From: a virus
Lineage: Duplodnaviria > Caudoviricetes
DNA: 55,631 bases
Reading direction: 5' to 3' (one strand)
IMG/VR virus record: IMGVR_UViG_3300030099_001934
Location: 1 to 55,631 of that record
Shown: positions 9,416 to 52,616 of the stretch, piece by piece
Position numbering within the stretch: the first letter of the stretch is position 1
Layout: each line of letters begins with the position of its first letter
Translations under genes and position numbers: made by a program
The notes under the pieces: generated by a model
Told to the model about the DNA's origin: nothing
Database searches by the model: none
Seen by the model: the letters and a program-made list of their open reading frames with translations, nothing else

Positions 9416-9425
9416 GATAGTTCCC

Positions 9426-29518: not shown

Positions 29519-29643
29519 CAATATTCACCTTTTTTCTTTGTATCGGGGTCAGCAACACGAGTAGGGTCTTTATCTCCTTTCTTACCTATTGATATAACCA
29601 AAACCATTCCGTGTTTTTTTCCGCCTAATTTACTTTCTTTCAT
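29518..29643 (-). CDS. Small basic protein, 41 aa (not in ORF track)
   Basis: SD GGAGG; MKESKLGGKKHGMVLVISIGKKGDKDPTRVADPDTKKKGEY; its stop overlaps the lyase ATG. Confidence 0.6.
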   Translation of the reverse strand: MKESKLGGKKHGMVLVISIGKKGDKDPTRVADPDTKKKGEY

Positions 29644-29647
29644 GGTA

Positions 29648-29809
29648 TCAAAACCTCCTTTGTGGTGAGCCACAATAAGGGCATCCTCCACTGTTAGCGG
29701 GAATATCAGCGTTACAAAAACTGTTCATACATTTTTTAGTCCCTTCAGGGTATGGGTTATACACCATTAATTTTTCAATTTTTGATTTTTTAACTCCAAC
29801 TTTTGTCAT
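29648..29809 (-). CDS. Small zinc-ribbon protein, 53 aa (not in ORF track)
   Basis: ATGA overlap with the terminase stop; MTKVGVKKSKIEKLMVYNPYPEGTKKCMNSFCNADIPANSGGCPYCGSPQRRF. Confidence 0.65.
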   Translation of the reverse strand: MTKVGVKKSKIEKLMVYNPYPEGTKKCMNSFCNADIPANSGGCPYCGSPQRRF

Positions 29810-31290
29810 GGTATCATCCACCCTCCATTTCCTTTGCCTGTTATGATATTGTCAAGTCCGGGGAGAATGTCGTCAAGCATGACGATAGAACCTCTGAACT
29901 CTTTTGTAGCCCAGTTAGCCAAAGCGAGAGACATAGCCAAGTCATCATGCACACCCACGCTCTCCAGTCTCCCGTTCTTTTGCATACCAAATCTATTCAA
30001 CTCTTCTTCTAACTTGTGAGTAAATATTCTACTCTTTTCATCTCCGTAAGGTGTCTTAATCTGTCCTTGTTCAAAGGCCATGAGTAAAGACATGAAGAGA
30101 CTTTCCTTTCTTGTCCGAGTTGTCATGAATGTTCTGATAGGAATGTCCTCTCTCATTTCATTCAACTCCATAGCAAACATACGCTGGAAATTGTTACCTT
30201 CAAGTTCTATTAAGTCAGGTTGAAATCTTTGATTCAAGAGAATGATTTGCCGTTTCTGTGCAACAGAACTCAGTCCACGCTCATGCACTATACCAACGAT
30301 TTGTTTTACATTATCATCAGGTGGTTGTCGTAGAACAGTCATAGCAGTAAAGTCAGCATTCTTATCGGATGCAATCGCAGTGTCCCACCCGATGAAGTGA
30401 TGACCAAATATACCTGTAGCATCACCGTTAGCATCGTATTCATTTTCAGCATGGTCAAGAAGAACCAACTCAGGGTCACGAGCCTTCTCAAGAATAGACA
30501 TTGGGAACATACTGGCAACATCATGGATTGGTTCGCAAAGATATTCACGAGTAAATTGAATCGCTGGCATAGATAATCGTCTTTGTGCCAGCGCATCAAG
30601 ACTCCAACGCTCAGGCCAAAGCGGTTCACCTTCTTTGTTGATAGCGGGATAAGTCTCTACTCGGAATGTCTCTTTCTTCTCAAGTTCAGCATACAAGTCA
30701 TTGTAACTAAACGGAGTTCCTACCATCATCATTTTACCTGTGTGGTGGAGAACTGGTAGAAGAACACCATAGAACCAGTCGGCTGCTCGCTGCAACTCAC
30801 TACCTGTTGTTCCCCACAAAATGTCATCGCATACAACAACATCAGGGTGGAAACCTCTTGTTCCTCCACCAACCGACTTAGCCATAATACGACTACCATT
30901 AGTGAACTCAAAGTAGGTCTTTCGCCACGGTATACCACCGGGCTTGAGATGTTGTAGACAAGCAGCACCGTCTATATTGTTACGAATAAAACGCATGTGC
31001 TCCAGTGTCTGTTCAAGAGAATGTGAAAAAATCATGATGTGTTTGTTAGGATTGAATGCTGCTAACCAAAGAGCATACGACATAAAGAATACAGACTTGC
31101 CGTGGTCACGACTTGCTTTGACACAGTAGTATCTGTTTTCTCCAAGACCTTTATCCCAACATTTGTGATGCTCCGCATAATCAAATCCTAAAACAGTTTC
31201 AAAAAAATATTTGAAAGAGCGCTTAGACATCTTCATGTCCATATCAATAATGAGTTGCTTCATCTGTTCTTCTTGCTCACGCTTACTCAT
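29806..31290 (-). CDS. terL: Terminase large subunit
   Basis: Walker A ASRDHGKS, Walker B VVVCDD, coupling motif VGTP, RNase H-like IGWDTA and HDDLAMSLALA. Confidence 0.95.
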   Translation of the reverse strand: MSKREQEEQMKQLIIDMDMKMSKRSFKYFFETVLGFDYAEHHKCWDKGLGENRYYCVKASRDHGKSVFFMSYALWLAAFNPNKHIMIFSHSLEQTLEHMRFIRNNIDGAACLQHLKPGGIPWRKTYFEFTNGSRIMAKSVGGGTRGFHPDVVVCDDILWGTTGSELQRAADWFYGVLLPVLHHTGKMMMVGTPFSYNDLYAELEKKETFRVETYPAINKEGEPLWPERWSLDALAQRRLSMPAIQFTREYLCEPIHDVASMFPMSILEKARDPELVLLDHAENEYDANGDATGIFGHHFIGWDTAIASDKNADFTAMTVLRQPPDDNVKQIVGIVHERGLSSVAQKRQIILLNQRFQPDLIELEGNNFQRMFAMELNEMREDIPIRTFMTTRTRKESLFMSLLMAFEQGQIKTPYGDEKSRIFTHKLEEELNRFGMQKNGRLESVGVHDDLAMSLALANWATKEFRGSIVMLDDILPGLDNIITGKGNGGWMIP

Positions 31291-32486: not shown

Positions 32487-34804
32487 TAGACACCACCTAC
32501 GCTTACTTTGACGACCTTGACAACATCTGTAGATACATTGAGTTTCTTAGCGATGCGTTCCCAGTCTCCATGTGAATATGCAATTGAACGAACATCTACT
32601 GGAGTGAGGTCAATACTCTTTGCGAGATGATTGATACCGTGAAGGTCAGCAATATTGATTTGACGAGGAGGTGCATGTTTCATAATTTTTGAATCCATAC
32701 GAGCATCATCCATTTGCATTTGCTCCATCGCTTTCATGACTCTATCCATTGGGGACAAGTCTTGGTCTTGTCCCTTCATATATTGAGTAAGGAGTTGTTG
32801 TCGTGGGTCACCCATCATCTGTTGATACCTTTGCTCTTGAGGAGAGAGTTCCATACCCTGCCCTTGAGGAACTCTTGCGCCAGCAGCCTCCATAATTTGT
32901 CGCAAAGTAACAGGGTCAGCACGACCAACATGTTGTCTTGCTGCTACTAACTCAGGGCTTTGTGGTCTGAAAGTGGGTGCTCCCCTTTGAGGAATTGGCG
33001 GAGGTAACGCCTCAGTTGCTGGGGGAGCAGCAGCAACTGTTTGTTGTGGTTGTGGAGGAGGTCTTGGTGTAGCGGAGGTAACTGGTGGTTTAGTAGCAGC
33101 AGCAACCCCAGCCCTTTCAACTGGCGCTAATCCTACATCGGTAAAGAATGGGATATGGTCAGGTAGTCTCTCAATAATTTGCTCAGGGTAACCTACAACA
33201 TTACGAGATGCTAATGAAGTAGAGGGTATTTCGTCAGGTAACTGACGGCGGGTTTGATGATTAAACGCTTCACTGAGTAAATCAGCCAAAGCCTGAGTGC
33301 CTTGTCTTCGCTGTTCTACTGTATCGTAACTTTGTAGATTTAGCCCAAGTCCTTGAATCACACCAGCGTCAATATTACCATCAGCGTCTCTCGGCATGTA
33401 TGCTCGTAGAGCACTATCGTGTTCATCGTGAGCGCCACTCAACATAGCCTTAGCATAGAACTTGGCTGCATTTTTGTGAGTTCCTAACTTTTGAGTTGGT
33501 CTAAGTCCGTCTTCAGTTTCTAAGTGGTCGCCTCCAATAGTATGACTGTTCATGTTTTCAAAAGTCATGCCGTCATCATCACCACCAAACGCTTGAAGGA
33601 TATGCTCAAACGCTCTTTTTCCAACACCGGGTCTTGCCGCTGTGCCGCTGATAATACGACCAAATAACATGTTGAATGCGGGGGTTCGTGATAACTCACC
33701 AATCATGTTATCAGTCATTTGAGGACTACGAAGAACTGTTCTGAGGTTCATCATGGTATACTGAGGACTACCAGTTGTGCCGGGTGTTGTGTTAATTGGA
33801 ACTTCAACATCGGGTATCTTGTCAGGGTCAATAACTTTCATCGCTTCAGCGATATGAGCCTTAGCGCTGTCAATAGAGTTCTTTGGGCCAGTTTGTTGCC
33901 GACCAGCCATCATGTGCATAAAGTCAGGAGTGTGATTCATAATCTCCCAAGACTGGATTCCGGTATGTGCTGCATCGTGAACTATACCTTTTGGAGCACC
34001 ACGAATATGACTGTCAGGTAGAGTATACTCTCCTCGTGCATTCATACCGATGACATCTCCACCTCTACCTCTGATACGGCGACCACGAGGGTGAAGGTCA
34101 GCGATGTCTATGTGTGGATTGTCAAGGAACTCAGCACCTACCATATCACTAATACCAAGAGTTTCAAGTAGAATCTTCTGTAGATTATGATTGTAAGGAA
34201 CAGCATAAGATTCAATCATAGCACCGATTTTCTCTTTACGGTTAGGTCGGTTTGTGTATGCTGTAATGTATTCTCCATCTTGAGAACGGTGAGCACGAGA
34301 AGCAGGTTTACGACCACCGTAACCTGCAACACGAATCTTACGATGCTCCATTGAATCTACATTAGGAATATGGTGAAACCCACTCTTGTCCTGATGTTCG
34401 TCATTTGTCATATTAATGGCTTGCTGAACAATATTTTGTGGTGTAAGAACTCCTAACTGTGCATGGCTTTGTCCAAGCATTCCGTTTCTCTCAAGCGCTT
34501 CACCAACTGCATGAAGAACTCCGTCAATTCCATGATGATGTGCCTCTCCATTGTGGTCAATGTAGACATGTTCTCCGTGTTTACCTTTTGAGAACTCACC
34601 GGGAATTAACTCTCCCATACCGGGGTGACCCGAAGGGTGAGGTTTTGCAGCACCATAGTGTGCATATACTGGGACATCAGGAACATTAGGGTCAGGATGG
34701 AATGCTTCAGGTGGAGGAGATGTCATCAAATGCGGTATTCCACCGTGGTAGGAATAAACACCGTCACCCTTGAGGATGATTGATTTACGAACTAAGATTT
34801 TCAA
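32486..34804 (-). CDS. Large hypothetical protein, possibly internal virion protein, with HTH-like C-terminus
   Basis: 772 aa; His/Pro-rich N-terminus, Pro-rich linker, C-terminal DWERIAKKLNVSTDVVK. Confidence 0.55.
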   Translation of the reverse strand: MKILVRKSIILKGDGVYSYHGGIPHLMTSPPPEAFHPDPNVPDVPVYAHYGAAKPHPSGHPGMGELIPGEFSKGKHGEHVYIDHNGEAHHHGIDGVLHAVGEALERNGMLGQSHAQLGVLTPQNIVQQAINMTNDEHQDKSGFHHIPNVDSMEHRKIRVAGYGGRKPASRAHRSQDGEYITAYTNRPNRKEKIGAMIESYAVPYNHNLQKILLETLGISDMVGAEFLDNPHIDIADLHPRGRRIRGRGGDVIGMNARGEYTLPDSHIRGAPKGIVHDAAHTGIQSWEIMNHTPDFMHMMAGRQQTGPKNSIDSAKAHIAEAMKVIDPDKIPDVEVPINTTPGTTGSPQYTMMNLRTVLRSPQMTDNMIGELSRTPAFNMLFGRIISGTAARPGVGKRAFEHILQAFGGDDDGMTFENMNSHTIGGDHLETEDGLRPTQKLGTHKNAAKFYAKAMLSGAHDEHDSALRAYMPRDADGNIDAGVIQGLGLNLQSYDTVEQRRQGTQALADLLSEAFNHQTRRQLPDEIPSTSLASRNVVGYPEQIIERLPDHIPFFTDVGLAPVERAGVAAATKPPVTSATPRPPPQPQQTVAAAPPATEALPPPIPQRGAPTFRPQSPELVAARQHVGRADPVTLRQIMEAAGARVPQGQGMELSPQEQRYQQMMGDPRQQLLTQYMKGQDQDLSPMDRVMKAMEQMQMDDARMDSKIMKHAPPRQINIADLHGINHLAKSIDLTPVDVRSIAYSHGDWERIAKKLNVSTDVVKVVKVSVGGV

Positions 34805-36048
34805 ACCCGACCACTCCCTCGGCCAGCCAAGTCACCGGGGGATAATCCCCAAAGGCGAGAGTCGTTTTCATCTTCAGTGCCACCTTCGGGGCGAGTTGCT
34901 GTTTTAGGATTATTTGCTTCGTAATTTGGTAGGTTACTCGCTGCCCCAGCCGTATCGGGATTCCCCTTTCCCTTTGTTTTCTTATCTTTATCTTTCTTTT
35001 CACGCATCAATTCACGAATCTCTTTGAGAGCAATTCGCATCAATGCTGCTTGATATGCATTCGCTTTGAGAATATCACTGTGCTGAGGAGTGTCCTCACT
35101 CATTGTTACCATACTCGGCATCTTAGGTCTTGCTAAGCGAGGCATCTTCATCTTAGGTGGTTGAATACTTGGAGCACGAACCGCATGTAGTCTTGGTCTT
35201 GGGACACGAGGATATTGTAGCGTGTTAGTCAAACGACCACCACCTGTGTCACCGGAAATAAAAGAGCGTTGGCTATGTCTCATGTGTGGAGTGATTGTGC
35301 TTCTTACACCACCCTGAAGTTTACGAGCCTCTTGAGATGCAAGATATGCACGATACTGCTGCGGGTCTTTACTCATCGGTTGCTTACTCGCAAGACCTCG
35401 GTGTGAAAACTCAACAGAAAGATGCGGCCTCATTAGCCCCGTTTTTCTACCTAAAGGTAGATTACGACTGATATTTTTTGCTCGCCTTGATGTAGCGTTG
35501 CGAGGGTCACCTCCTCCTTTTGGGCGTTCAAACTGCCCTGTAGATGGTCGCCACTTTGCATATTTTTCTTTCTTTCTTCTTCGTGCTATTGAGCGTTTTG
35601 ATTCTGATTTTAATAATCTCCAAGCGATGTCCATAGGTTCAGACATCTGAATCATCTCTCCACCCGCAGCACCCGGCCCTTTCGCACCCATAGCAAGACT
35701 TGTGAGGAATCCACCAGCGCCACCCGGCATGGTTTGAGTGGCTGGATTATCAGTAGAGCCACGAGGTTTGAACTTCTCTTCTTTTTCGTCTACATCTTCT
35801 GTAGGTTTTTCACCGTCAAGACCAAGATGATGCGAGCGAACTTTGATGTGACGGATTTTCTTATCCTCTTTTTCCTCGGCTTCTTTTTTGGCCTGACGCT
35901 TATCTTGACGCTTTTCTTTATCTCGGCCATCTTCTATACCGCTTGGTGGCCTTTCATCTTCATGATTAGCCCTGAACATTTCAGAAGACTCGGAACGAGG
36001 ATTGTATATCCTTGTATCAGAGGTTCGCCCCATCATGCCCTCCGTCAT
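34801..36048 (-). CDS. Basic low-complexity protein carrying the EPMDIAWRLLK tag
   Basis: 415 aa, R/K-rich. Internal IQMSEPMDIAWRLLKS matches the linkers of the 938-aa protein. Confidence 0.6.
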   Translation of the reverse strand: MTEGMMGRTSDTRIYNPRSESSEMFRANHEDERPPSGIEDGRDKEKRQDKRQAKKEAEEKEDKKIRHIKVRSHHLGLDGEKPTEDVDEKEEKFKPRGSTDNPATQTMPGGAGGFLTSLAMGAKGPGAAGGEMIQMSEPMDIAWRLLKSESKRSIARRRKKEKYAKWRPSTGQFERPKGGGDPRNATSRRAKNISRNLPLGRKTGLMRPHLSVEFSHRGLASKQPMSKDPQQYRAYLASQEARKLQGGVRSTITPHMRHSQRSFISGDTGGGRLTNTLQYPRVPRPRLHAVRAPSIQPPKMKMPRLARPKMPSMVTMSEDTPQHSDILKANAYQAALMRIALKEIRELMREKKDKDKKTKGKGNPDTAGAASNLPNYEANNPKTATRPEGGTEDENDSRLWGLSPGDLAGRGSGRV

Positions 36049-36446
36049 GTGTTATCCCCCCGTATATGATATTGAAAACACTGTCGCAGTTTTTCCGCTA
36101 TTTTTCTATAGAACAGCATAATCCTCGGACTTTCTTGAAATGCCGAAGTCATATTTTCAATGGTGTATTCAAACTCTTCAAGTAAACGAGGTATAAGATG
36201 GTATGCTGGGAAAAATGTTAGCGGGTTATCATCTTCAAACACTGTTTCAAATGACTTTGCCAGTAACTTAAACAAATCAGGGGGAATAATTTTTAATTCT
36301 CCATAGTGCTCAAATCTTTCTGTAACACAACGACAGAAATCAAGATACATTGGTAAATGATTTTCAGAGATAACCAATTCACTTTCTACCATTGAATAAC
36401 CCGGATGAGTCATTTGTAGTAAATCAGGAACTGGGACTGGCATCAA
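36045..36446 (-). CDS. Hypothetical helical protein
   Basis: 133-aa ORF with overlaps on both sides. Confidence 0.6.
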   Translation of the reverse strand: MMPVPVPDLLQMTHPGYSMVESELVISENHLPMYLDFCRCVTERFEHYGELKIIPPDLFKLLAKSFETVFEDDNPLTFFPAYHLIPRLLEEFEYTIENMTSAFQESPRIMLFYRKIAEKLRQCFQYHIRGDNT

Positions 36447-37126
36447 TTTATATCACCTGCATGTTCTATCAATTTATCTCGCATTCTCGCCCATGAATCA
36501 GGGCTTTCTTTACTTAACTCAACCTTTAGAATATTGATTGTGTTATTGATTTGATTATTCTCTGTGGTAGGACTCCACTGCTCATTCATCTTGAGCAAGT
36601 CCTTTATTGATTCTCTGACTTCTTTGTGCAAGGACACTGCATCTCTAACAAACCCGTCTTCGTGAACACTACCCTCATGGAGCAATTCTGACAACTTAAC
36701 ATTGAGGAGTTCAACATTTGACCTGAGCGCATTTATTTCTTCTCCTACAACTAATGTTATCTCAGCGGCTGCGCTTCTTTGAACTAACGGTTGAAAATGA
36801 TGTTTCATGTGATGATACACAGAAGACTCAGCGATACCAATTTCTTCAGCGATAGCCTCTGATTCAGACCCATCTTCAAAATATCTTCTTTCAAAGTCAG
36901 CCCTTTCAGGGTGGGCGCAAACCTTGCACTGCGGATTAGAAGCCATGTGAAATTGACCCATGTGATTACGAAAGTGGCGGTCAGTTGTGTTCAATCTCCA
37001 GCCCATGTCTTGGTCTAATTGTTTAGAAGAGATTTCACCGTCAAGGAGTCCCTTCTCTAAGTCTTCACGACTTGGGTGCTGACACAAAGGACAAGAGCGT
37101 TTTGATACAGGTTTGCCCTCCGCCAT
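36443..37126 (-). CDS. Tandem Zn-finger/HTH protein, probable terminase small subunit
   Basis: Two CxxCxHP...HxxxH units (CPLCQHP...RHFRNH and CKVCAHP...HHMKHH) followed by coiled-coil helices; first gene of the run leading to terL. Confidence 0.55.
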   Translation of the reverse strand: MAEGKPVSKRSCPLCQHPSREDLEKGLLDGEISSKQLDQDMGWRLNTTDRHFRNHMGQFHMASNPQCKVCAHPERADFERRYFEDGSESEAIAEEIGIAESSVYHHMKHHFQPLVQRSAAAEITLVVGEEINALRSNVELLNVKLSELLHEGSVHEDGFVRDAVSLHKEVRESIKDLLKMNEQWSPTTENNQINNTINILKVELSKESPDSWARMRDKLIEHAGDIN

Positions 37127-37185: not shown

Positions 37186-37461
37186 ATGCTGCCACCCTAT
37201 GAGAGAGTTCCTAAGCAACCTCTCAAAGAGCGTGGTAAAGATTTAATCAAAGCATCAAAAGATGCACTGAAAGGTAATAGGGTATCAAAAGAAGAATACA
37301 TGGCGAGACTTGATGAATGTTATCAGTGTCCTTACATGCAAAAAAGAATGGGAACATGCCGACTGTGTAATTGTGTCATGAAAATTAAAGCGCTTGCGCC
37401 TTCAATTTCATGTCCGATAAAGAAATGGTCAGCGAGTGATTCGGGAGTAAAGAGTGGTTAA
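37186..37461 (+). CDS. Small Cys-rich protein (DUF6171-like)
   Basis: RLDECYQCP...CRLCNCVMKIK...CPIKKW; the only convincing plus-strand gene inside the late block. Confidence 0.75.
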   Translation: MLPPYERVPKQPLKERGKDLIKASKDALKGNRVSKEEYMARLDECYQCPYMQKRMGTCRLCNCVMKIKALAPSISCPIKKWSASDSGVKSG

Positions 37462-37677
37462 GAAGACTAATCCTCCAAAGATACCTACTACGAATACGCT
37501 AACATCTCCGCTGCTCATTGAATCTCCTTTGAAAACTAAGATAGATGCACAAGCGATAATGATTGAGATAAACTGAACCATTATCATTTCTACGATGATA
37601 TTTCTACTGGGAGCAAATATAGTGCTACTTGCTTGACTAATTCTCATACTGTAATCAGACATACTACCGGGTTGCAT
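37429..37677 (-). CDS. Small two-TM membrane protein, holin-like
   Basis: Hydrophobic segments IIVEMIMVQFISIIIACASILVF and VSVFVVGIFGGLVFLTTLY; SD GGTGA. Confidence 0.65.
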   Translation of the reverse strand: MQPGSMSDYSMRISQASSTIFAPSRNIIVEMIMVQFISIIIACASILVFKGDSMSSGDVSVFVVGIFGGLVFLTTLYSRITR

Positions 37678-37686
37678 TTTATCACC

Positions 37687-38349
37687 TTAGTTTCTTGGTA
37701 GTCCTATGAGTCCACGAGCGACACTACCAATTCCGCCACCGACTTTGTTCATCATTCCTTCATCTTGTAAAGCAGCACCAAGAGCATTACCCATTAGAGA
37801 CTGTTGAGACATATTGAAAATCTGTTGCCTTTGCATTTCAGCATCTTGGAACTTTTGATTACTTGCGGCTACCATGTTGTTAAGAATCATACTAACATTT
37901 TCTACGCTAAGTGTTTGTAAATCCGAAGGTAAAGTAGCGGGGTCAAGTTTCATACCGCCCTCATCTTCGTCAATAACAAATGTAGCATTTTTTAGAATGT
38001 TAAGTAAACTTAGACTTGTAGTTGCAGCAATTAAATCTACTAAAGTGCCAAGTCCTCCGTCTTTGATAAAACGATGAATTGGATTTTGAGATTGAAGTAG
38101 AGCACCCATCAACTCCATTTCGCTTGGAGGGGTGTATTGCTGTTGTTGAAACATTTGTTGCTGTTGTTGATTCATACCGACACCATTCATCATTCCAGCA
38201 ATAAATCCTTGATTTTGCTGTTGTTGCATGGGCTGTGCGCTAAGAGAATAACTGCTTTGTGGTTGCTGCATTCCGTAGTTCATTCCTCCACCAGTTGCTG
38301 ATAGATTCAAACCACCAGTTTGCTGTTGTTGATTACCGAGTCCTAACAT
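37687..38349 (-). CDS. Gln/Gly/Met-rich protein
   Basis: 220 aa with a prion-like Q-rich N-terminus and amphipathic C-terminus GGGIGSVARGLIG. Confidence 0.65.
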   Translation of the reverse strand: MLGLGNQQQQTGGLNLSATGGGMNYGMQQPQSSYSLSAQPMQQQQNQGFIAGMMNGVGMNQQQQQMFQQQQYTPPSEMELMGALLQSQNPIHRFIKDGGLGTLVDLIAATTSLSLLNILKNATFVIDEDEGGMKLDPATLPSDLQTLSVENVSMILNNMVAASNQKFQDAEMQRQQIFNMSQQSLMGNALGAALQDEGMMNKVGGGIGSVARGLIGLPRN

Positions 38350-38353
38350 CGTA

Positions 38354-39289
38354 TCATGCCTCCCCAGCGACTACTCCACCATCAAGGTTCTGTTGTAATT
38401 TTGCATTCTCGGTGTTAAGTAATTCTTGGAATGCTTGAGTAGGCATATTCATTTGTTGTAATTCCATTTGGAATATACGCAAGTCAAACACAACCATTGT
38501 AACATCGTTTTGACCAGTAACTGGATTAGCATAATGTAGAACATTGATACCTTTTGTTTTACCAGCATCTCTTTCAAGTTCAGCGAAGAACGGTTCGTAT
38601 TTTTGTAGCATAGCAGGTGTCGGGTCATTTTTCTTTACAGAAGATATAGGAACTGTTACGATAGATACACCCCTTTTGACTTTATCACGAAGTCGGCTTG
38701 GGTTCATCTCATTCTGTTTGTCCTCCTCAGCCTCCCATTTACATAGCAAATGATAGAGGTGCATGTGTTCAGGACAGTATGTTCCTTTGAGTTTACGCCC
38801 ACTGGTAACTTTATCTTGTGCAATAAACGCTTCAGGTTGCCCAGTAACCGGATTTTGCCAATACATTTCCCAAAGAGAGCGCCCTGTTTCTTCATCGCAA
38901 ATACGCATGTAAAGATTATCATGCTGGATTAGATTTGCACAGTTACAACCATCTACAACACATGTTCCTGTATCTTTAGCATATCTGTATTTACGACCAA
39001 ATAAAAATCTCATTGGGTTGAAAATAGAACGCTTTGCCGGTTGAAGTAATTTGTAGGCTTGTTTGATGTCTTTACGGCGAGCCTTTCTTGGGTCAGGATG
39101 ACGACTTGGATAAAAATTAACTTTGGGAACTTCTATATTTCCTGATGCTGCTGCCGCTTGCATACCTTGTTGAGCCACCAACATTTCTTGTAGAGCAGCC
39201 TGAGTAAGTTGTTCATTACCTTGCATAGCCAAAGTTGCTAATTGCGCTTCGTTAAGATTCTGTTGTTGATTTCTACTAAAGTTCATCAT
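38354..39289 (-). CDS. Hypothetical protein with putative Zn site
   Basis: 311 aa; CVVDGC...YCPEH; Q-rich termini. Confidence 0.65.
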   Translation of the reverse strand: MMNFSRNQQQNLNEAQLATLAMQGNEQLTQAALQEMLVAQQGMQAAAASGNIEVPKVNFYPSRHPDPRKARRKDIKQAYKLLQPAKRSIFNPMRFLFGRKYRYAKDTGTCVVDGCNCANLIQHDNLYMRICDEETGRSLWEMYWQNPVTGQPEAFIAQDKVTSGRKLKGTYCPEHMHLYHLLCKWEAEEDKQNEMNPSRLRDKVKRGVSIVTVPISSVKKNDPTPAMLQKYEPFFAELERDAGKTKGINVLHYANPVTGQNDVTMVVFDLRIFQMELQQMNMPTQAFQELLNTENAKLQQNLDGGVVAGEA

Positions 39290-39483
39290 TCTACCACGAC
39301 CTGCTTAGCCGTAGGTGTCATGACTACAACAATTTGTCCCTCTTGAACGGTAAATCTCCAATTAACATCATCACCAGCACTAAGTCCAAAATGCTCTACG
39401 ATAAACATAGGAACAGTTGTCCTTAGACTGCGACTACCGCCACCAGTAGATACCAAAGTAGTAGACGATTTTTTACCTGTCAT
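39286..39483 (-). CDS. AbrB/MazE/SpoVT-family DNA-binding protein
   Basis: GGGSRSLRTTVPMFIVEHFGLSAGDDVNW swapped-hairpin pattern. Confidence 0.85.
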   Translation of the reverse strand: MTGKKSSTTLVSTGGGSRSLRTTVPMFIVEHFGLSAGDDVNWRFTVQEGQIVVVMTPTAKQVVVE

Positions 39484-39538
39484 ATTTACACCGAAAGAGT
39501 TGTTATTGAAAAGGCTACCTATGGGGTCATTTTTTTGG

Positions 39539-40261
39539 TCAAGATGTCAAAAGACTCACCATAGTCTTCTCTACATTCCATCCTATTCTTGTAGCCATGA
39601 AAGACCTGCGAGTAGGAATACCTGCTTTTTGTAACCTGATTAAGTCGTCTCTGAACGGGTCAAATATCTTATGTTCCCCTATGCGGCCATCGTGCCATAG
39701 TTTAGATGCAGTCTCATCAAAGAAACGGTCAGCCTTGTTAGCAACTAACATGATGACTCTTGGGTGATATTTTTTACCTCTAAACCTTGACCATAAAGAA
39801 CGGTAACGATATTCTCGTTTTATTAGACAATCTACAAGATAACGAAAGCCAGCAATTTGTTGCACAGCATCGTCTCCTCCTTTGAATGCTCTATCATCAA
39901 ACATGTAGACAATTGCCTCTACACCACGAGTTACCATATCCTCAATCCACAGATTCCAAAAACGCTCTTGGCCTCCTATGTCGGATGAATAGACTACTCT
40001 TTTTTCACCTTGCCAAGATACTCTTTTTCTTGTTGGTTTTGGCATTTTATATTTACCAATTTTTAGTATACGAGAGTGAGTAGTTCTTTCATCTTCAGGT
40101 ATTTCCTCCATTTCACCGGGAGTTGTAAGGTAACGGTCAAGTGTAGTTTTACCAACCATAGGTGCTCCGTATACACCGACCTTTCTTGGTTTGTAAGAAT
40201 TGTAGAGATTCTGACCCCACATCGCTGCGCCTACAAGCGCAGTTCCTCCGGGGTCTACCAT
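39539..40261 (-). CDS. Ras-superfamily small GTPase, Arf-like
   Basis: G1 GAPMVGKTT, G2 Thr (ERTT), G3 DIGGQERFWNLW, AIVYMFD strand, G4 ANKAD. Confidence 0.85.
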   Translation of the reverse strand: MVDPGGTALVGAAMWGQNLYNSYKPRKVGVYGAPMVGKTTLDRYLTTPGEMEEIPEDERTTHSRILKIGKYKMPKPTRKRVSWQGEKRVVYSSDIGGQERFWNLWIEDMVTRGVEAIVYMFDDRAFKGGDDAVQQIAGFRYLVDCLIKREYRYRSLWSRFRGKKYHPRVIMLVANKADRFFDETASKLWHDGRIGEHKIFDPFRDDLIRLQKAGIPTRRSFMATRIGWNVEKTMVSLLTS

Positions 40262-40264
40262 TGA

Positions 40265-40522
40265 TTAATCCCACCACTTTAACCAGTTAGCAAAGTCTTC
40301 AAGTTTTTTAATACTCCAATCTACAGTGTTTTCATATATACTGTATTCAGGATTGTGAAACTCAAAGCCACTAACAATAAGACATGTAATACCCGATGCG
40401 ATAATTGTCTTTATCCAGCCCCAAGTTCTTTCGTATGCGTTATCTACTGTATTTGCTATGTGAATAGCACGAAGAGTGCTTTCAGTAGCATCGTCAGAAG
40501 GAGTGCGAAAGATTCGACCCAT
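40265..40522 (-). CDS. Small single-TM membrane protein
   Basis: Hydrophobic WIKTIIASGITCLIVSGF and a Trp-rich amphipathic C-terminus. Confidence 0.65.
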   Translation of the reverse strand: MGRIFRTPSDDATESTLRAIHIANTVDNAYERTWGWIKTIIASGITCLIVSGFEFHNPEYSIYENTVDWSIKKLEDFANWLKWWD

Positions 40523-40535
40523 GTTTAAGCCTCAC

Positions 40536-41156
40536 TCAAGATTTCTTTTCATATCTCTTATCAGGTGTGCCGTCTTTCTTTAACTTCACAGGCTCTTCAT
40601 CTATACCAAGAGTAAGCGGTTGTTGTATTTTCGCCTCATGAGTTGGAATACGACTACTATCAAATACAGTAGAGCCGCCACCTCTATTGTCAAATGAGCC
40701 AATCATAGAAGGAGAACCACCCGCTACGCCCCAACTTGGTGGCATTTTTCCGGGGTTTTCCTCCATCCAGCGAAGTTCACGCTCAAGTTGTGCTTCTTGC
40801 ATTCTCATTTCCATTTCAGCCCTACGATTATCAAACTGCTGTTGCATCATACGGTATTGGTGGTTTCTTTGTTTCTCAATATTACCATGTCTTACTTTCT
40901 CCTGTAAGTTCTGTTCAAAGAACATCTTGAAGAAGTAATATGCAATACCCTGCATAAAGAATGCACCCATAGCATAAGTAAATCCATTTATCCAAACACT
41001 GTCCTGTTTAAGCCAAACCTCAGCATCAAAGATACCAATTGCTACTCCGACCAGTGTGCTTTGGGCTAAGATAAGCCCCATTAACCTAATTTCCGCTTCG
41101 TGATGGTCTTGTGATTCCATAATGTCCACTGGACTGTCCACTCCGGGGGTCACCAT
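40536..41156 (-). CDS. Two-TM membrane protein with cytoplasmic coiled coil
   Basis: TM segments LMGLILAQSTLVGVAIGIF and INGFTYAMGAFFMQGIAYYFF, a Q/E/M coiled coil and C-terminal KKDGTPDKRY. The start may be the second Met (MESQ). Confidence 0.7.
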   Translation of the reverse strand: MVTPGVDSPVDIMESQDHHEAEIRLMGLILAQSTLVGVAIGIFDAEVWLKQDSVWINGFTYAMGAFFMQGIAYYFFKMFFEQNLQEKVRHGNIEKQRNHQYRMMQQQFDNRRAEMEMRMQEAQLERELRWMEENPGKMPPSWGVAGGSPSMIGSFDNRGGGSTVFDSSRIPTHEAKIQQPLTLGIDEEPVKLKKDGTPDKRYEKKS

Positions 41157-41170
41157 AAAGGTTGCTGGGG

Positions 41171-41264
41171 GTGTTGTCCGAGTTGTCAGTTGTATTATCT
41201 ATACTTTGAAAGAATAATTACAAAACAATATTTGTGTAAACAATACATTAGACAACTTAGACAA
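41171..41264. repeat. Inverted-repeat element with AT-rich spacer, copy 1
   Basis: TTGTCCGAGTTGTC (41174-41187) and GACAACTTAGACAA (41251-41264) flank a 63-bp AT-rich spacer. The left 28 bp match 51445-51472 at 26/28. Confidence 0.85.
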
Positions 41265-41265
41265 A

Positions 41266-41698: not shown

Positions 41699-42013
41699 CT
41701 AACAATTCCATCTCTTCAACGCTGCTCCTTTCGGAGTCAGTTTTCCATCTTTACTGGTTGGGCCTTTACTACCGCCCATTCTTGCACAAAATGATTTACG
41801 CCTCTTAGCAGCCTTGCTACCCGGTTTGAGTTTGCTTGGTTTTTTAGTTACTGGTCTTTTCAAATTAGCACCAGTTTCTCTTTTGAACTTAGCACGACCC
41901 TTAGCGTTCAACCCACCACTCTTAGAGTGTCTTTTTGGATTATAACCGTGAAACGGTTTAGATTTCTTTTTTGCTTTTTCAATTACAGACCATGCTTCTT
42001 CAAATGCACTCAT
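41699..42013 (-). CDS. Small basic protein (DUF6321-like) with AWxxxxK tag
   Basis: MSAFEEAWSVIEKA followed by GGLNAKGR...RRKSFCARM...LKRWNC. Confidence 0.7.
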   Translation of the reverse strand: MSAFEEAWSVIEKAKKKSKPFHGYNPKRHSKSGGLNAKGRAKFKRETGANLKRPVTKKPSKLKPGSKAAKRRKSFCARMGGSKGPTSKDGKLTPKGAALKRWNC

Positions 42014-42612
42014 TGTATCACACCAACCATTTTTTTCATACTTTCAGTTTTCTTTTTCTGTTGCTCAATAAAATTACGATAAACACCAGCCTCTTGTTTC
42101 TTACCCATTTCTCGTGCTCTTTGTTCCATAGCAATTGCTGCTTGTGTTTTGTGAGCATGACTGCGGCTGCTGTTTTTAATTTTAGATACGGATTGACGAG
42201 CCTTTGCTGGATTTTTGAACCCTAAACCATGTATAGTGCCTTTTGGATTTTCGTCAGTATACAAATCAGAGTGTTTCTTTGAACCAGCAGGTTGTCCTTT
42301 TTTACGAGGTATACGAGGTGCTTTTACCAAGACACTTTTGACAATCGTAGGTTTACCACCTACTCCTTGTTTTTTACTACGCTTTCTTTTAGTAGCGGCT
42401 CGCTTTTGTCCTTCGGACATTGAGCCGGAAGTCTTTGGAGTTTTACTTGATACTTTTACACTTGGTCTACACTTTGGATAACCCTTGCTTGAAGTCTTGG
42501 CTTTTGACCTACCACAAGGAGGGTGAGAACCATCTTTATTCTTACGACTAACATCAACCCATTTTTCTTTGAACCATCGGTTCAAGTTTTTACGGATTAA
42601 CACTTTAGTCAT
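42010..42612 (-). CDS. Two-domain basic protein of marine-phage type
   Basis: LNRWFKEKWVD...PCGR...YPKCRP domain, SVLVKA linker, then HSDLYTDENPKGTIHGLGFK...MEQRA domain. Confidence 0.7.
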   Translation of the reverse strand: MTKVLIRKNLNRWFKEKWVDVSRKNKDGSHPPCGRSKAKTSSKGYPKCRPSVKVSSKTPKTSGSMSEGQKRAATKRKRSKKQGVGGKPTIVKSVLVKAPRIPRKKGQPAGSKKHSDLYTDENPKGTIHGLGFKNPAKARQSVSKIKNSSRSHAHKTQAAIAMEQRAREMGKKQEAGVYRNFIEQQKKKTESMKKMVGVIQ

Positions 42613-42616
42613 CCAC

Positions 42617-42793
42617 TCACCTTACTGCTACCATCTTTGAAATCTTACTTGCTTTTTTCTTTTGTTTGTCAAGTAAAGCATAACAAGGACACTTAGGGGC
42701 TTCTGCCGAACACTGCATAACTCCTTTGAGCATACACACGCATGGGGTCTTTTCAGTGCCACCACAACAACATGATTTACGCTTTAGTTTCAT
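42617..42793 (-). CDS. Small Cys-rich basic protein, 58 aa
   Basis: Start revised to ATG 42793 (ATGA overlap): MKLKRKSCCCGGTEKTPCVCMLKGVMQCSAEAPKCPC... Confidence 0.65.
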   Translation of the reverse strand: MKLKRKSCCCGGTEKTPCVCMLKGVMQCSAEAPKCPCYALLDKQKKKASKISKMVAVR

Positions 42794-42954
42794 TTCTTTT
42801 TCCCCTTTTTCTTGAACTTTCCACGACAGTATTGCACAGCCCACCCATTAGCATACGCCGATGGATAAACTTTGAACTTTCTTTTAGCAGCAGCCTTACC
42901 TGCTGGACATAATTTTTTCTCAAGCGAATCCCATGCAATATCAAACGGTGTCAT
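42790..42954 (-). CDS. Small basic protein with AW tag, 54 aa (not in ORF track)
   Basis: MTPFDIAWDSLEKKLCPAGKAAAKRKFKVYPSAYANGWAVQYCRGKFKKKGKKK, with ATGA overlaps at both ends. Confidence 0.8.
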   Translation of the reverse strand: MTPFDIAWDSLEKKLCPAGKAAAKRKFKVYPSAYANGWAVQYCRGKFKKKGKKK

Positions 42955-45767
42955 TGTGTAGCCTCCTGTTGAAAGTTATAATCTTGTAAGAAAAAAGGTT
43001 TGTTCTCATTATGAGCCGATAGTGATTGTTGTAAAAAATCTTGTGTCCAATCCGCCCCTTCTTTCATTGGAGTTCCATGTATTTGTTTTTCATGCTCTAC
43101 TCCGCCAATATCTCTCATGTATCTACCGTTATCAGATTCCGAAATTGGTTTATTCACTAATTCTCTAATATGGTCGTAATCAGTTACACTCGGCATACCT
43201 TCTTTGTCTAACACAGAAGCCCAAGCCCCGCTTGTCTCGGCGTAGTGTCCGGGTATTTTCAGATTTTCAAACATGTGATTTTTAAGAGCATTCTTACCTT
43301 CTCTACTTCCATCATGCGCTGTTACCGATGACTTGAACCCCTGCTCTCTTTGAGAATAAATGTGTGCGGCATCAACAAAAGGGTCTTCGTCATTGTCAAT
43401 CATATCATAACGATGGTGTTTTTGCTCTTCTTGTAGGTCATCAGCGTTTTTGTATTTAGCGTGACCTCCCGCAGCCTCGTATGAAATATTCATAGCATCG
43501 GCTACTTCTCCGTAGAGTTCAGGTTTGGCATCCATCCCCTCCTTTGGTAAACTTACCCACGAATCTTTAGTTCCAAAATATTCATTGAAGTTTGCTTTTA
43601 GTAATTGATAAGCGATTTCTATTGGCTCTCCACGATTAAGGCCGAATCCTCCAGCCATTCTTGAAGCAAACCCGGCACTCTGATTGTATTTTCTATGAAA
43701 ATTACCATGAGGGTCTTCAACATTCCAATGGTCATATTCTTCGGCCATTTTATCTAACGCTACTTTTGATGGATGAAGCGGGTTTTCAAAGTCACTTTGT
43801 AATTTCATTTGCTCTTCATGTGGCATAGCACTTACCTTTGCTGATGCATCATGGTAGTGTTGAATGTAACGAAGGTATTCATCAAATGCTTCTTCAGGGT
43901 AAAGGTGGTGTTTATCCGGGTGAAACATGCCACTGTAGTTTTCTGTTTCTAATTCACCACTTACAGGGTCATTCCAATATGAAGGAGGGGAGTCGGCAAT
44001 AGTATCAACAATTGCTCTTTGTTTATCGTGCAATTCATCATAAGACAATAATGGGTAGCCTAAGTCAAATGCATCTTCAATGTAATTATTTTTCCTATCA
44101 TCATTTTTAAGGAGTTGATAAGGGATGTCCATTGGTTCGCTTGCTACTTTACGAGCGCCCCCTCTTCTGCGAAGCCTTTTTTTGTCACGGAGGTGTTCAT
44201 CCATACCTATGTCAAGTTCTTCAGCCCTTCTTGTAATAGCATCCATAGCATAAGACGGAGATATTCTTTCATCGTAAGGAACAAACCCTTCTTCAGTTGG
44301 TGAAGTAAATTGCCCTGTTATTGCTCTAAATCCAGCATCTCCTACTGTGGTATTCCAATCACGGTTGTATTCTTGAGGTGTCATTGGTAATCCTATTTCA
44401 TCCATTAATTTTCTTTGATTCATCAAAGCCATAGTCTCCCAATCAACTGCTCTAAGCATTTCACGAGGAGTTCTTATTCCAACTTTACCAAGTCTACGAC
44501 CCTCTCCCCATTTGTGGTTTAGGTCTTCAAGTCCTTGAGCATGACCGAGTTCGTGTAATTTTCTCCAGTTATCAGTAAATTGAGCATCACCAAATGATGC
44601 AGCCTCTGTATGAGGGTCAAAGATAGCAAGATGCCCAGTGGTATAATTTCTATTCTTTAAGTCAGAATAGTTACCATACTGCCCACCAAAGTAATACGGT
44701 TCATATCCATAATGTGCAAGTAACTCATCTACTTGAGCAGTCATATCGGCTAATTCTCTACTGTATGGTAGAAAAGGCTCACCAACTTTACTTGTATCTT
44801 GTGTCCCGTAATGCTGCATTATTTCCCAAAAACGAGGGTCATTCTTGGCTGCGTGTTGTCCTGATACATCAACCTTAGAATCTTTTAACAACTGATAAGC
44901 AATCTCCATTGGATTACCTGCTAATTTTATATCATAGTCTGACGGAGATAACGCTGCTGGGTGTATCATATCGTGAACATCATATTGCTCAGCACAATTA
45001 TAACAAAGGTGATGAGTGTAATCTTTTGTAAAAGTTGGATTTGTATAACGAAGAGATATGAGGGCATTGGGGTTAGGGCAAAGAGTGCAAGCCTCATTTA
45101 TGTAAGGTGAAGACCCAACACTCCTCAGTTCTACTGGATGGTCAGCATCGTGAGCAGCCATTTCTTTGAGTAGTTGAAAAGCAATCTCCATTGGTTCACC
45201 AGTTTGCACTGATGCACCACGGCGAGCCATATCCATAGCCCGTTGTTCTTGTGCTTGTTTTTTCTGAGCAGCATTTGCTTGCGATTGCTGCGCTAACTGC
45301 ATACCGATTTTTTTGTAATCGGTTTTCTTACCAGCGCTTCCACTTGGCTCTTCAGGTTCAGGCATTTCAGCCGCTGGTTCAGCAGCAGGTGGTTCAGGAG
45401 TAGTAACCTCGGCACTCGGCATCTTTTCTCCCAGTTTAGGTTTAGGAGCAACAGACTCTACTGCCTCAGATGCGCCTTTAGCGGCAGTCTTAGCAGCACT
45501 GGTAGCACCTTCAGCAGCACCTGCTGCCTCTGTTACTGCACCGCCACCTTTGACACCGACTTTTGCTTTGAGATTTTTTAGTCCAGTGCCTACTTTAGCC
45601 CTGAGATTTTTAGCACCAGTTTTCAAAGCACCTTTAACACCCTGCGAGGCTACTGCTTGACCTACTTTTGAAGCGCCAAGTTTTGCTGCTAATGGTGCTA
45701 ATTGTAAAAACTTCTCAATATCATCCTCGGAATCCCACGGAACAAAGTCGTAGTTTTCACTCGGCAT
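42951..45767 (-). CDS. 938-aa multidomain polyprotein with four EPMEIAYQLLK-type linkers and an HExxH domain
   Basis: Linkers at about 45165-45197, 44881-44915, 44101-44138 and 43591-43628; CxxC...CxxC module; WRKLHELGHAQG. Confidence 0.75.
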   Translation of the reverse strand: MPSENYDFVPWDSEDDIEKFLQLAPLAAKLGASKVGQAVASQGVKGALKTGAKNLRAKVGTGLKNLKAKVGVKGGGAVTEAAGAAEGATSAAKTAAKGASEAVESVAPKPKLGEKMPSAEVTTPEPPAAEPAAEMPEPEEPSGSAGKKTDYKKIGMQLAQQSQANAAQKKQAQEQRAMDMARRGASVQTGEPMEIAFQLLKEMAAHDADHPVELRSVGSSPYINEACTLCPNPNALISLRYTNPTFTKDYTHHLCYNCAEQYDVHDMIHPAALSPSDYDIKLAGNPMEIAYQLLKDSKVDVSGQHAAKNDPRFWEIMQHYGTQDTSKVGEPFLPYSRELADMTAQVDELLAHYGYEPYYFGGQYGNYSDLKNRNYTTGHLAIFDPHTEAASFGDAQFTDNWRKLHELGHAQGLEDLNHKWGEGRRLGKVGIRTPREMLRAVDWETMALMNQRKLMDEIGLPMTPQEYNRDWNTTVGDAGFRAITGQFTSPTEEGFVPYDERISPSYAMDAITRRAEELDIGMDEHLRDKKRLRRRGGARKVASEPMDIPYQLLKNDDRKNNYIEDAFDLGYPLLSYDELHDKQRAIVDTIADSPPSYWNDPVSGELETENYSGMFHPDKHHLYPEEAFDEYLRYIQHYHDASAKVSAMPHEEQMKLQSDFENPLHPSKVALDKMAEEYDHWNVEDPHGNFHRKYNQSAGFASRMAGGFGLNRGEPIEIAYQLLKANFNEYFGTKDSWVSLPKEGMDAKPELYGEVADAMNISYEAAGGHAKYKNADDLQEEQKHHRYDMIDNDEDPFVDAAHIYSQREQGFKSSVTAHDGSREGKNALKNHMFENLKIPGHYAETSGAWASVLDKEGMPSVTDYDHIRELVNKPISESDNGRYMRDIGGVEHEKQIHGTPMKEGADWTQDFLQQSLSAHNENKPFFLQDYNFQQEATQ

Positions 45768-52378: not shown

Positions 52379-52581
52379 TGTGGAGACTTGAAGCAGTCAT
52401 TAACTGGGGCGCACAGTTAGGTGAGCCTACAGTCACATGGGAGTTTGCTACTGAGGAGGAGGTAGATGACATGCTCAACTACCTCACTGTTGCACTTAAC
52501 CCACTGGACATTACATGGTGCTACACAAAACAGCAAGCGCCCTTCTCACCATCATTAAGCGCAACAGTGATTGAGGGTTGA
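52378..52581 (+). CDS. Small hypothetical protein
   Basis: 67 aa; TGATG overlap; GGAG upstream. Confidence 0.6.
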   Translation: MWRLEAVINWGAQLGEPTVTWEFATEEEVDDMLNYLTVALNPLDITWCYTKQQAPFSPSLSATVIEG

Positions 52582-52596
52582 TATATAAAGCAGCAT
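52577..52596 (+). promoter_or_regulatory. Early promoter, copy 3
   Basis: GTTGATATATAAAGCAGCAT upstream of the helicase ATG at 52617. Confidence 0.8.
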
Positions 52597-52616
52597 ATAA
52601 TAGGAGAGTGATTACA

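Follow-up and report, generated by a model that had tools for sequence, protein, structure and literature searches.

Why should what appears to be a tailed virus of archaea encode a small GTPase amid a row of small membrane proteins, and what might such a protein do there? The question is raised by the IMG/VR virus record IMGVR_UViG_3300030099_001934 (Caudoviricetes), whose whole stretch of 55,631 bases was analyzed here and is referred to as the window. An earlier sequence-only reading had singled out the interval 37429-41156 as an Arf-like GTPase within a membrane-protein operon and had suggested a GTPase-switched module that would time lysis, deform the membrane or make up a membrane-bound assembly site. 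The seven-gene cassette at this position is under strong purifying selection and behaves like a set of core genes. The explanation that we favor, tentatively and with chances somewhat short of even, is that the cassette (37429-41156, minus strand) is a core operon of magrovirus-type viruses, built around a virus-specific, deep-branching small GTPase that would act as a membrane switch.

Conservation of the cassette

The seven open reading frames (ORFs) of the cassette, given here from the upstream end, all lie on the minus strand.

40536-41156, minus strand: protein A, 206 amino acids (aa), with a strong hydrophobic segment at residues 21-49 and a marginal, aromatic-rich second segment
40265-40522, minus strand: protein B, 85 aa, with a moderate hydrophobic segment at residues 33-55 (mean 1.54)
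39539-40261, minus strand: small GTPase, 240 aa, an ORF with G1, G3, G4 and G5-like motifs
39286-39483, minus strand: protein D, 65 aa, with a match to Pfam MazE_antitoxin (PF04014; E 1.1e-4, 22.5 bits, cut-off 24.7)
38354-39289, minus strand: protein E, 311 aa, with a Q-rich N-terminus and a conserved Cys/His core at ~53-290
37687-38349, minus strand: protein F, 220 aa, of low complexity in its Q/M/G/N-rich N-terminal part, conserved in the middle and rich in Gly at the C-terminus
37429-37677, minus strand: protein G, 82 aa, with hydrophobic segments at residues 24-52 and 54-80 and a short basic C-terminus, YSRITR

The gaps between these genes measure 3-13 nucleotides (nt), apart from one of 55 nt and one overlap of 4 nt, which bears out the co-oriented, tightly spaced group that the sequence-only reading had described. 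The gene for protein B ends 3 nt before the GTPase start, and that for protein D overlaps the protein E gene by 4 nt.

The GTPase belongs to a narrow but populous family, which falls into 473 clusters when a 90% identity threshold is used but has only 74 representatives at 50% among 1.84 billion proteins searched; IMG/VR contains 295 contigs with a relative. We scored 80 kept related viral loci by tblastn, with 89 loci in total examined for the core order. Across the 80 loci, in which GTPase identity ranges from 69 to 97%, the gene order is g05-A-B-GTPase-D-E-F-G-h1-(h2)-h3-h4-...-TerL, where TerL is the large terminase. The GTPase, B, E, F, G and h1 were each present in 80 loci, A in 78 (the two misses being loci that start after A), TerL in 77 and D in 75. 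Median identities were 78% for TerL, 75% for the GTPase, 68% for E, 65% for h1, 63% for A, 52% for B, 49% for D, 46% for G and 44% for F. It is evident that the cassette is not a product of chance, as each of its genes is conserved as a protein in 75-80 of the 80 loci and in the same order.

Synteny across related viruses was the check that the sequence-only reading had proposed, and the arrangement extends well beyond the close relatives. The order A-B-GTPase-E-F is kept in 89/89 loci, including four deeper lineages (L081-83, L084, L088 and L089) in which the GTPase is only 35-39% identical. At the same places in L081, L084, L088 and L089 are found analogues of protein A (one or two transmembrane segments plus a coiled-coil-like stretch) and Q/M-rich analogues of protein F. 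Protein G is present in all 80 close loci and in L085-L089, with homologues bearing two transmembrane segments in L088 and L089, both of which also retain h1. The only lineage-specific member is the gene for the AbrB-type protein D, which was identified in 79/84 of loci L001-L084 by blastp on ORFs and was not found in L081-L084, L088 or L089; it is a lineage-specific insertion in the cassette.

A complete GTPase from a putative virus-specific family

The central gene of the cassette encodes a complete small GTPase with a Ras-like G domain and intact nucleotide-binding residues, as the sequence-only reading had held. Conservation of its motifs, counted over 91 distinct family sequences, reaches 90-91/91 at the key positions.

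40193-40252, minus strand: N-terminal helix (residues 4-23) predicted by AlphaFold2, with a block pLDDT (predicted local distance difference test) of 56-70
40145-40168, minus strand: G1/P-loop GAPMVGKT (residues 32-39), with G32, G37 and K38 in 91/91 sequences and position 39 occupied by 89 T and 2 S
39947-39982, minus strand: G3/switch II DIGGQERFWNLW (residues 94-105), with D94 and G97 in 91/91 and G96 and W105 in 90/91
39728-39739, minus strand: G4 NKAD (residues 175-178), with N175 and K176 in 91/91 and D178 in 90/91

The G3 stretch consists of DIGGQ (94-98) followed by ERFWNLW, the position of the switch II Arg is occupied by Trp in 86/91 sequences, and the G5-like motif is MAT (222-224). 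The AlphaFold2 model, built on a 22-row alignment, has a pLDDT of 89.0 and a predicted template modeling score of 0.85. A Foldseek search of this model against the PDB gave 500 or more matches at E <= 0.001, led by Rab1, Rab27, Ypt1, RhoC and KRas (E 5e-9 to 5e-8, target-normalized TM-score ~0.55-0.69). The predicted N-terminal helix is uncharged, hydrophobic and rich in Gly, Ala and aromatic residues, with the basic residues K24, R26 and K27 coming next, and its end aligns with the helix end of GerdArfR1 (query 14-55 versus 4-45 of chain 8oun_A). The GTPase has no hydrophobic segment at the hydropathy thresholds used. Among 640 candidates, no fused or longer form of the GTPase scored, which is weak evidence.

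The Arf/Sar membership proposed by the sequence-only reading fared less well. In sequence/profile searches of the PDB, GerdArfR1 (8oun_A) came first with 30.2 bits (E 3.2e-6), followed by Arl8A/B with 24-25 bits (Arl8A 4ile_A, 25.3 bits, E 9.8e-5), with Rab33B (21 bits) and KRas (<=19 bits) behind them. The Arl8 and GerdArfR1 matches are driven by the G3/switch II stretch, and canonical Arf1, Arf6 and Sar1 are absent from the best 60 PDB matches. None of the Pfam or NCBIfam GTPase models exceeded its cut-off in any of 22 family members; at E <= 1, Pfam matches were to Roc in 15/22, MMR_HSR1 in 11/22 and Arf in 8/22 (best Arf E 0.0048). For the GTPase of the window itself, Roc reached 18.8 bits against a cut-off of 27 and TIGR00231 17.9 against 42.5. 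In a six-frame search of the window, nothing matched PF00025 at E <= 0.01, although this model does give matches in 13/14 control genomes. Some family members are labeled "GTPase SAR1 family protein" by automatic annotation pipelines. The best affinity of the viral GTPase, though a weak one, is with Arf and Arl8, in features of switch II and the N-terminus.

Comparisons of profiles and trees were made with reference sets from one Asgard genome (9 Arf-type, 16 Ras/Rab-type, 8 MMR_HSR1-type and 5 Rag-type proteins) plus 12 ArvA homologues; the trees contain no eukaryotic Arf/Sar, MglA, Roc or SR-beta sequences. A hidden Markov model (HMM) of the viral family scores 20.7-23.2 bits on three core Asgard ArfR proteins, <=12.3 bits on Ras/Rab proteins and 18-21 bits on ArvA (15.4-20.7 bits on the homologues from 11 genomes), and the Arf and Ras HMMs score each other at ~60 bits. 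Maximum likelihood trees were built with 11 of 22 viral rows (L112 was dropped as a duplicate of L114, and the second tree, of 59 rows, also omits L110 and L111, whose branches were long). The viral family is one clade in each tree (100/99-100), on a very long stem. The 47-row tree recovers an Arf+Ras clan (97/93) that leaves out the viral family, and in the 59-row tree the viral stem meets a poorly supported node while ArvA falls with the Era/Obg-type set (83/84). Approximately unbiased (AU) tests rejected none of the groupings of the viral family with Arf (p 0.144, at a cost of 8.76 log-likelihood units), with ArvA (p 0.26) or with Ras (p 0.357). Given that no Pfam cut-off was reached, that the Foldseek matches are generic, that the branch is long and separate, and that the AU tests do not discriminate, membership in the Arf/Sar family is not upheld. 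We conclude instead that the viral GTPase probably represents a separate, deep and virus-specific family of Ras-like GTPases. As a separate observation, the Asgard reference genome itself encodes a 204-aa ArvA-like GTPase (L135, G328:C93), which groups with the ArvA set (98/95).

Searches of cellular and viral collections returned the family on viral contigs. Among 185,579 species genomes searched, the five apparently cellular matches all carry the viral cassette, and a profile of the viral GTPase family had no hit at E <= 0.01 when run on 200 further genomes from the order to which the assembly containing L089 belongs. DNA and protein searches with cassette and GTPase gave no hit in 50,697 phage records, a collection from which close kin of the window may be missing. 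In the ESM Atlas, the closest clusters outside viruses are bacterial ones, with 17-67% of their members carrying an Arf domain, which is a lead only. Three of the contigs, L085-L087, occur in metagenome-assembled genomes titled Parvibaculum, Maricaulis and Promethearchaeati and look like binning errors; they were considered as bacterial and Asgard host homologues and rejected as such, being viral contigs with the whole cassette.

Comparison with known systems

Among solved structures, the Arf family (GerdArfR1 8OUN/8OUM and Arl8A/B) supplies the best sequence matches to the viral GTPase. The Arf consensus for switch II is DxGGQxxxRxxW, and the viral protein carries DxGGQ..F..LW, with the Trp at +11 from the Asp. 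Also Arf-like are its similar size and a helix placed ahead of strand 1 and followed by basic residues. The 8OUN structure shows GerdArfR1-GDP at full length, with the N-terminal helix present (bioRxiv 10.1101/2024.02.28.582541). The viral GTPase has no lipid-modification motif, and in this it is like ArfR1 and Arl8. Unlike Arf, however, it has the P-loop GAPMVGKT rather than GLDxAGKT, an insertion of ~20 residues between G1 and strand 2, Trp in place of the switch II Arg and a helix that is only weakly amphipathic, and it does not nest with Arf in the trees.

A second resemblance is to ArvA (OapA) of Haloferax volcanii, which is described as a small GTPase with an N-terminal helix that is needed for vesicle formation, and which is encoded with ArvB and the Zn-ribbon protein ArvC, both reported to drive vesicle formation together with it (PMC10927574). 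Like the viral protein, ArvA is a small GTPase encoded in prokaryotes that begins with an N-terminal helix; its conserved operon adds two partners that are not GTPases, of which one is Cys-rich, and it is reported to act on the cell membrane. The N-terminal thirds of the two are similar (K-x-h-R/K-hGhYG.P..GKTTL ... IP.E.R), and hhalign aligned them with a probability of 95% (E 2e-8) over 72 columns, which is little more than the P-loop region. In contrast to the viral DxGGQ, the G3 motif of ArvA is DTPGIATK, with DTPGIAT invariant in homologues from 11 genomes. The partners of ArvA belong to the OapB (PF09846) and DUF2072 families, neither of which matched at E <= 0.1 in ten proteins around the viral GTPase. 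Moreover, ArvA is cellular and has no membrane-protein neighbors, whereas the viral family was found only on viral contigs.

Giant viruses (Nucleocytoviricota) also encode GTPases of the Ras superfamily, namely Rab, Ras and Ran. All 50 listed structure matches in BFVD are GTPases of giant viruses of eukaryotes (best E 1.4e-9), and no virus of prokaryotes is among them. Going by names alone, the giant-virus proteins would be members of host-type families, whereas the family described here would be a deep orphan branch in a tailed archaeal virus.

In its position, finally, the cassette invites comparison with the lambdoid late operon, in which a lysis cassette (holin, endolysin and spanin) precedes the terminase genes. 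In both cases small membrane proteins are encoded just upstream of packaging and head genes on the same strand, and protein G is of holin size. However, the viral cassette has no recognized endolysin or spanin, and it includes a GTPase and two orphan soluble proteins; we know of no lysis cassette that contains a GTPase and such orphan proteins. The putative archaeal host has no murein wall.

A possible membrane switch and its alternatives

Under the membrane-switch model, for which we infer the membrane binding, partners, timing and output, the GTPase would cycle between GDP and GTP states. In one of these states, its N-terminal helix and basic residues would sit on the cytoplasmic face of the host membrane beside proteins A and B. 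Protein E might serve as an effector or regulator of the GTPase, and the Q-rich protein F and protein G with its two hydrophobic segments might act downstream. The output would presumably be a change in the host membrane that is timed to a late stage of infection, with cell exit the likeliest form and a membrane-bound assembly site the next.

Several points argue for such a switch: 1) the nearest resemblances of the viral GTPase appear to be to membrane-acting GTPases (GerdArfR1, Arl8A and ArvA), 2) proteins A, B and G have hydrophobic segments, and the predicted GTPase helix is positioned like those of Arf, ArfR and ArvA, and 3) the cassette lies in a leftward arm of ~50 kilobases (kb), upstream of the genes for TerL, portal, protease, capsid and tail and apart from the plus-strand arm with its SNF2 helicase. 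The intact G domain, the core-gene conservation and the strict linkage of A-B-GTPase-E-F count in favor of the model as well, and so, weakly, does the predicted complex of the GTPase with protein E. Related haloviruses share the block of capsid, portal and terminase genes without such a GTPase, and no GTPase is annotated upstream of the terminase in HVTV-1; the viral GTPase would therefore stand outside the common assembly machinery. It is because the cassette precedes the morphogenesis genes in the same arm while its GTPase appears to stand outside that machinery that we favor the membrane-switch model.

A number of observations weigh against this model. The late timing is read from gene order alone. 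The small membrane proteins are far less conserved than the GTPase (44-63% median identity), and no protein G was recognized in the L081/L084 lineage. No lysis enzyme and no S-layer- or wall-degrading enzyme was recognized among 40 window proteins scanned with Pfam, in agreement with the sequence-only reading, which had seen no lysis gene in the window. Q98, the Gln at the catalytic position (39968-39970, minus strand), is kept in 70/91 family sequences and is replaced by D, E, H or A in the other 21, with all nucleotide-binding residues fixed; GTP hydrolysis may need a partner, or may not be alike in all lineages. The N-terminal segment had been called amphipathic-looking, and while a hydrophobic, uncharged helix is indeed predicted, its amphipathicity is weak (Eisenberg hydrophobic moment 0.20-0.25, mean hydrophobicity 0.32-0.39). 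With so small a moment, amphipathic membrane binding is not evident from the sequence. The AlphaFold2 model of protein E has a pLDDT of 65.9 and no PDB fold match at E <= 0.001 by Foldseek. Its predicted contact with the GTPase is weak as well: the predicted complex of the GTPase with E(50-295) scored 0.34, against 0.00 for the best control. In calibration the 0.34 mark was reached by 58/80 solved complexes and by 2/110 mismatched pairs, although at <=0.60 it was reached by only 7/80 solved complexes and by both passing mismatches. In the GTPase-E(50-295) runs, at least 49% of contacts agree and the partner pLDDT is at least 60. The prediction gives a hint of a GTPase-E contact, resting mostly on the invariable adjacency of the two genes.

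Alternatively, the GTPase could be a soluble factor in assembly or packaging that might, for instance, time the formation of procapsids or of the terminase, with E and F as partners and the membrane proteins as unrelated neighbors. We consider this unlikely, even though in 77-80 of 80 loci the cassette is followed directly by h1 (which has weak small-terminase PHROG matches) and then by h3, h4 and TerL, both the GTPase and E are well conserved (75% and 68% median) while the membrane proteins drift, and the GTPase itself bears no hydrophobic segment. Such neighbors would hardly be unrelated when A and B keep their place by the GTPase even at 35-39% GTPase identity, and in 51/80 loci a convergent gene separates the cassette from h1-TerL. 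Moreover, the related haloviruses share the capsid, portal and terminase (with a major capsid protein, MCP, that is 33% identical), and as no GTPase relative turned up among the 50,697 phage records searched, the shared morphogenesis machinery presumably works without it. Still less likely, in our view, is that the cassette serves to take over the host or to reprogram its envelope without any tie to exit, as in superinfection exclusion, receptor blocking, or interference with host polarity or motility. MglA-type GTPases do control polarity in bacteria, and exclusion systems typically pair a regulator with small membrane proteins; an AbrB-type regulator is inserted in one lineage, and the virus would bring a new activity to its host, given that no homologue was found in the 200 further host-order genomes. 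Nevertheless, the cassette lies in the structural arm and not among replication or early genes, and it is as conserved as TerL, unlike accessory exclusion genes, which usually vary. None of 10 proteins scanned with PADLOC matched its defense families, which further argues against take-over and on which ground we also rejected a reading of the cassette as a defense system.

The resemblance to ArvA raises one more alternative, namely that the cassette makes the host shed vesicles and stands in for ArvA-ArvB-ArvC, whether for decoys, spread or envelope removal. This has a slim chance, the least of the alternatives weighed here. It would account for the shared helix, the ArvA-like N-terminal third and the vesicle-forming activity reported for the Haloferax operon with its Zn-ribbon partner (PMC10927574), and it gains from the distribution of ArvB/OapB (PF09846), which was detected in 0/41 genomes of the host order versus 74/151 of its phylum. 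The host genome samples are incomplete, such that this negative means "not found" rather than "absent"; even so, the putative hosts may be without the ArvABC vesiculation system. The differences are harder to reconcile: ArvA has DTPG and not DxGGQ at G3, E and F match neither OapB nor DUF2072, the larger tree puts ArvA with the Era/Obg-type GTPases and away from the viral family, and the 72-column match barely exceeds the P-loop region.

Within the membrane-switch model, its boldest form is that the cassette constitutes the exit machine of magroviruses, a self-contained, virus-encoded and GTP-timed system of membrane remodeling. We find this doubtful, if deserving of serious consideration. Such a machine would consist of the GTPase, two membrane anchors, a Cys/His regulator, a Q-rich protein that associates with itself and a small pore-forming protein; jointly they would open the membrane or make it bud, in hosts that are taken to lack both ESCRT-type and ArvABC-type vesiculation genes. 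If true, head-tailed archaeal viruses would have their first known egress mechanism, and viruses of prokaryotes their first known case of a virus-encoded membrane system driven by a small GTPase. A review describes how head-tailed archaeal viruses leave the cell as uncharacterized (PMC10791045), and the first magrovirus report ranks magroviruses among the most abundant surface-ocean viruses, third after SAR11 phages and cyanophages (PMC5434244). The sequence-only reading knew of no earlier description in tailed archaeal viruses, and none was found in the published magrovirus, archaeal-virus and Poseidoniales literature searched (PMC5434244, PMC10160649, PMC11706807 and PMC8651126, whose supplementary tables may list "GTPase") or among the virus-related passages of PMC11914678. 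With its terminase-level conservation, its switch protein and its membrane-protein setting, the cassette provides a concrete and testable candidate for the exit of archaeal tailed viruses. In addition, a deep, virus-only branch of small GTPases bears upon how membrane-acting GTP switches such as Arf and ArvA have spread among archaea and viruses.

Partner proteins and flanks of the cassette

The sequence-only reading had described protein A as a coiled-coil protein with two transmembrane segments. One strong segment is evident, whereas the second is marginal by Kyte-Doolittle in the window copy and clear in the L088 homologue. Beyond these segments, the protein continues with a Q/R/E/M-rich helical stretch and a disordered tail, and its only Pfam match is to DUF350 (16.4 bits, below the cut-off of 26). 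Protein B, with its single moderate segment, agrees with the earlier description of a protein with one transmembrane segment; it has a conserved N-terminal cytoplasmic stretch, and its motif ENAYER...GW can be recognized in L088 and L089. Protein G has the two clear segments, the small size and the charged C-terminus that had led to its being called holin-like. It matches no Pfam or PHROG family, thus no known holin family, and no endolysin adjoins it, so that it appears holin-like in size and topology only.

Among the putatively soluble partners, protein D is probably an AbrB/MazE/SpoVT-type swapped-hairpin DNA binder. The PF04014 match spans residues 16-53 and is consistent with the AbrB regulator named earlier, although its score remains under the Pfam cut-off. 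Protein E had been described as Zn/Q-rich. The Q-rich N-terminus and the conserved Cys and His residues are present, but the "Zn" rests on conserved residues only: in a 19-row alignment A4, C110 and C172 are invariant and C115, H175 and H180 occur in at least 90% of rows. Its family comprises 619 clusters at 90% identity, all unnamed or "hypothetical" and without a Pfam domain. Searches with protein E gave no Pfam family at E <= 0.1 beyond one chance-level match, with no ArfGAP or other Zn-finger family among the Pfam results, no PHROG family and no usable ESM Atlas match. By these comparisons it is an orphan family, always encoded downstream of the GTPase. The Q-rich character ascribed to protein F is apparent from its composition: its 220 residues include 33 Gln (15%), 27 Gly, 18 Met and 17 Asn.

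Both flanks of the cassette show features of their own.

41157-41265, minus strand: AT-rich spacer of 109 nt preceding gene A; a TATA-like stretch lies ~50 nt ahead of the start codon
37186-37461, plus strand: Cys-rich convergent gene, 91 aa, DUF6171-like (24.9 bits versus a cut-off of 27)

The spacer, as read by eye only, is possibly an archaeal promoter. The convergent gene, which lies between G and h1, is conserved as a protein in 51/80 loci and is always antisense to the cassette; it therefore marks the 3' end of the cassette unit. Beyond it lies h1 (227 aa, 36443-37126, minus strand), which contains two Cx2C...H...H repeats, a helix-turn-helix-like stretch and a helical C-terminal part. 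It was found in 80/80 loci as well as in L088/L089, and its PHROG matches to small terminase subunits (E 0.02-0.04), though weak, make it a candidate small terminase.

The virus and other features of the window

Long ORFs from position 1 to ~50,000 are nearly all on the minus strand, and the plus-strand arm begins near 50,180. Pfam identified the following landmarks.

9426-11630, minus-strand arm: tail tube protein
15654-16826, minus-strand arm: HK97-type capsid protein
16865-18247, minus-strand arm: prohead protease
25575-27350, minus-strand arm: portal protein (37.9 bits, slightly below the cut-off of 39.1)
29806-31290, minus-strand arm: large terminase
52578-55220, plus-strand arm: SNF2 helicase

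The MCP has 32-33% identity with its counterparts in the haloarchaeal siphoviruses HVTV-1, HCTV-1 and HCTV-5. A capsid relation between magroviruses and haloarchaeal siphoviruses has been published, and group A is said in that report to encode an SNF2 helicase (PMC5434244). The completeness of the 55,631-base record is estimated at 52%, close relatives of the window occur on contigs of 95-107 kb, and the cassette relative L089 (G001:C2), carried by a contig of 106 kb, comes from an assembly whose title is Candidatus Poseidoniales archaeon. On account of the capsid relation, the completeness estimate, the size of the relatives and the title of this assembly, we read the window as probably about half of a magrovirus-type genome, from a marine tailed virus linked to Poseidoniales. 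Placement in "group A" would follow from the helicase alone. The L089 contig is also of interest in its own right as a possible direct link between virus and host.

Several minor observations were made along the way. Between the terminase and portal genes lies an HMGL-like gene of the pyruvate carboxyltransferase/HMG-CoA lyase type (28604-29521, minus strand, 92.6 bits); the first magrovirus paper reports that no auxiliary metabolic genes were seen (PMC5434244). A thermosome-type chaperonin, identified by reading the translation by eye, is encoded just upstream of the cassette in L084 (6820-8481 of a 110-kb contig), in line with the chaperonins mentioned for magroviruses in the same source (PMC5434244). 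In the tail-gene region, a 196-aa protein (8870-9460, minus strand) contains a SAP domain (38.2 bits), a DNA-binding motif that is unusual there. The genes g01-g04 (41699-42954, minus strand) encode small, very basic proteins with 79-100% identity across loci, two of which match DUF6321 and DUF5872; their location differs between genomes and is at times downstream of TerL, as if they moved as a block. Finally, an 11-residue motif, (E/N)P(M/I)(D/E)I(A/P)(Y/F/W)(Q/R)LLK, occurs four times in g00 (938 aa, 42951-45767; copies within 43596-45197, minus strand) and once in h3 (415 aa, 34801-36048), at 35608-35640 on the minus strand, and could be a targeting, docking or cleavage signal shared by the two proteins.

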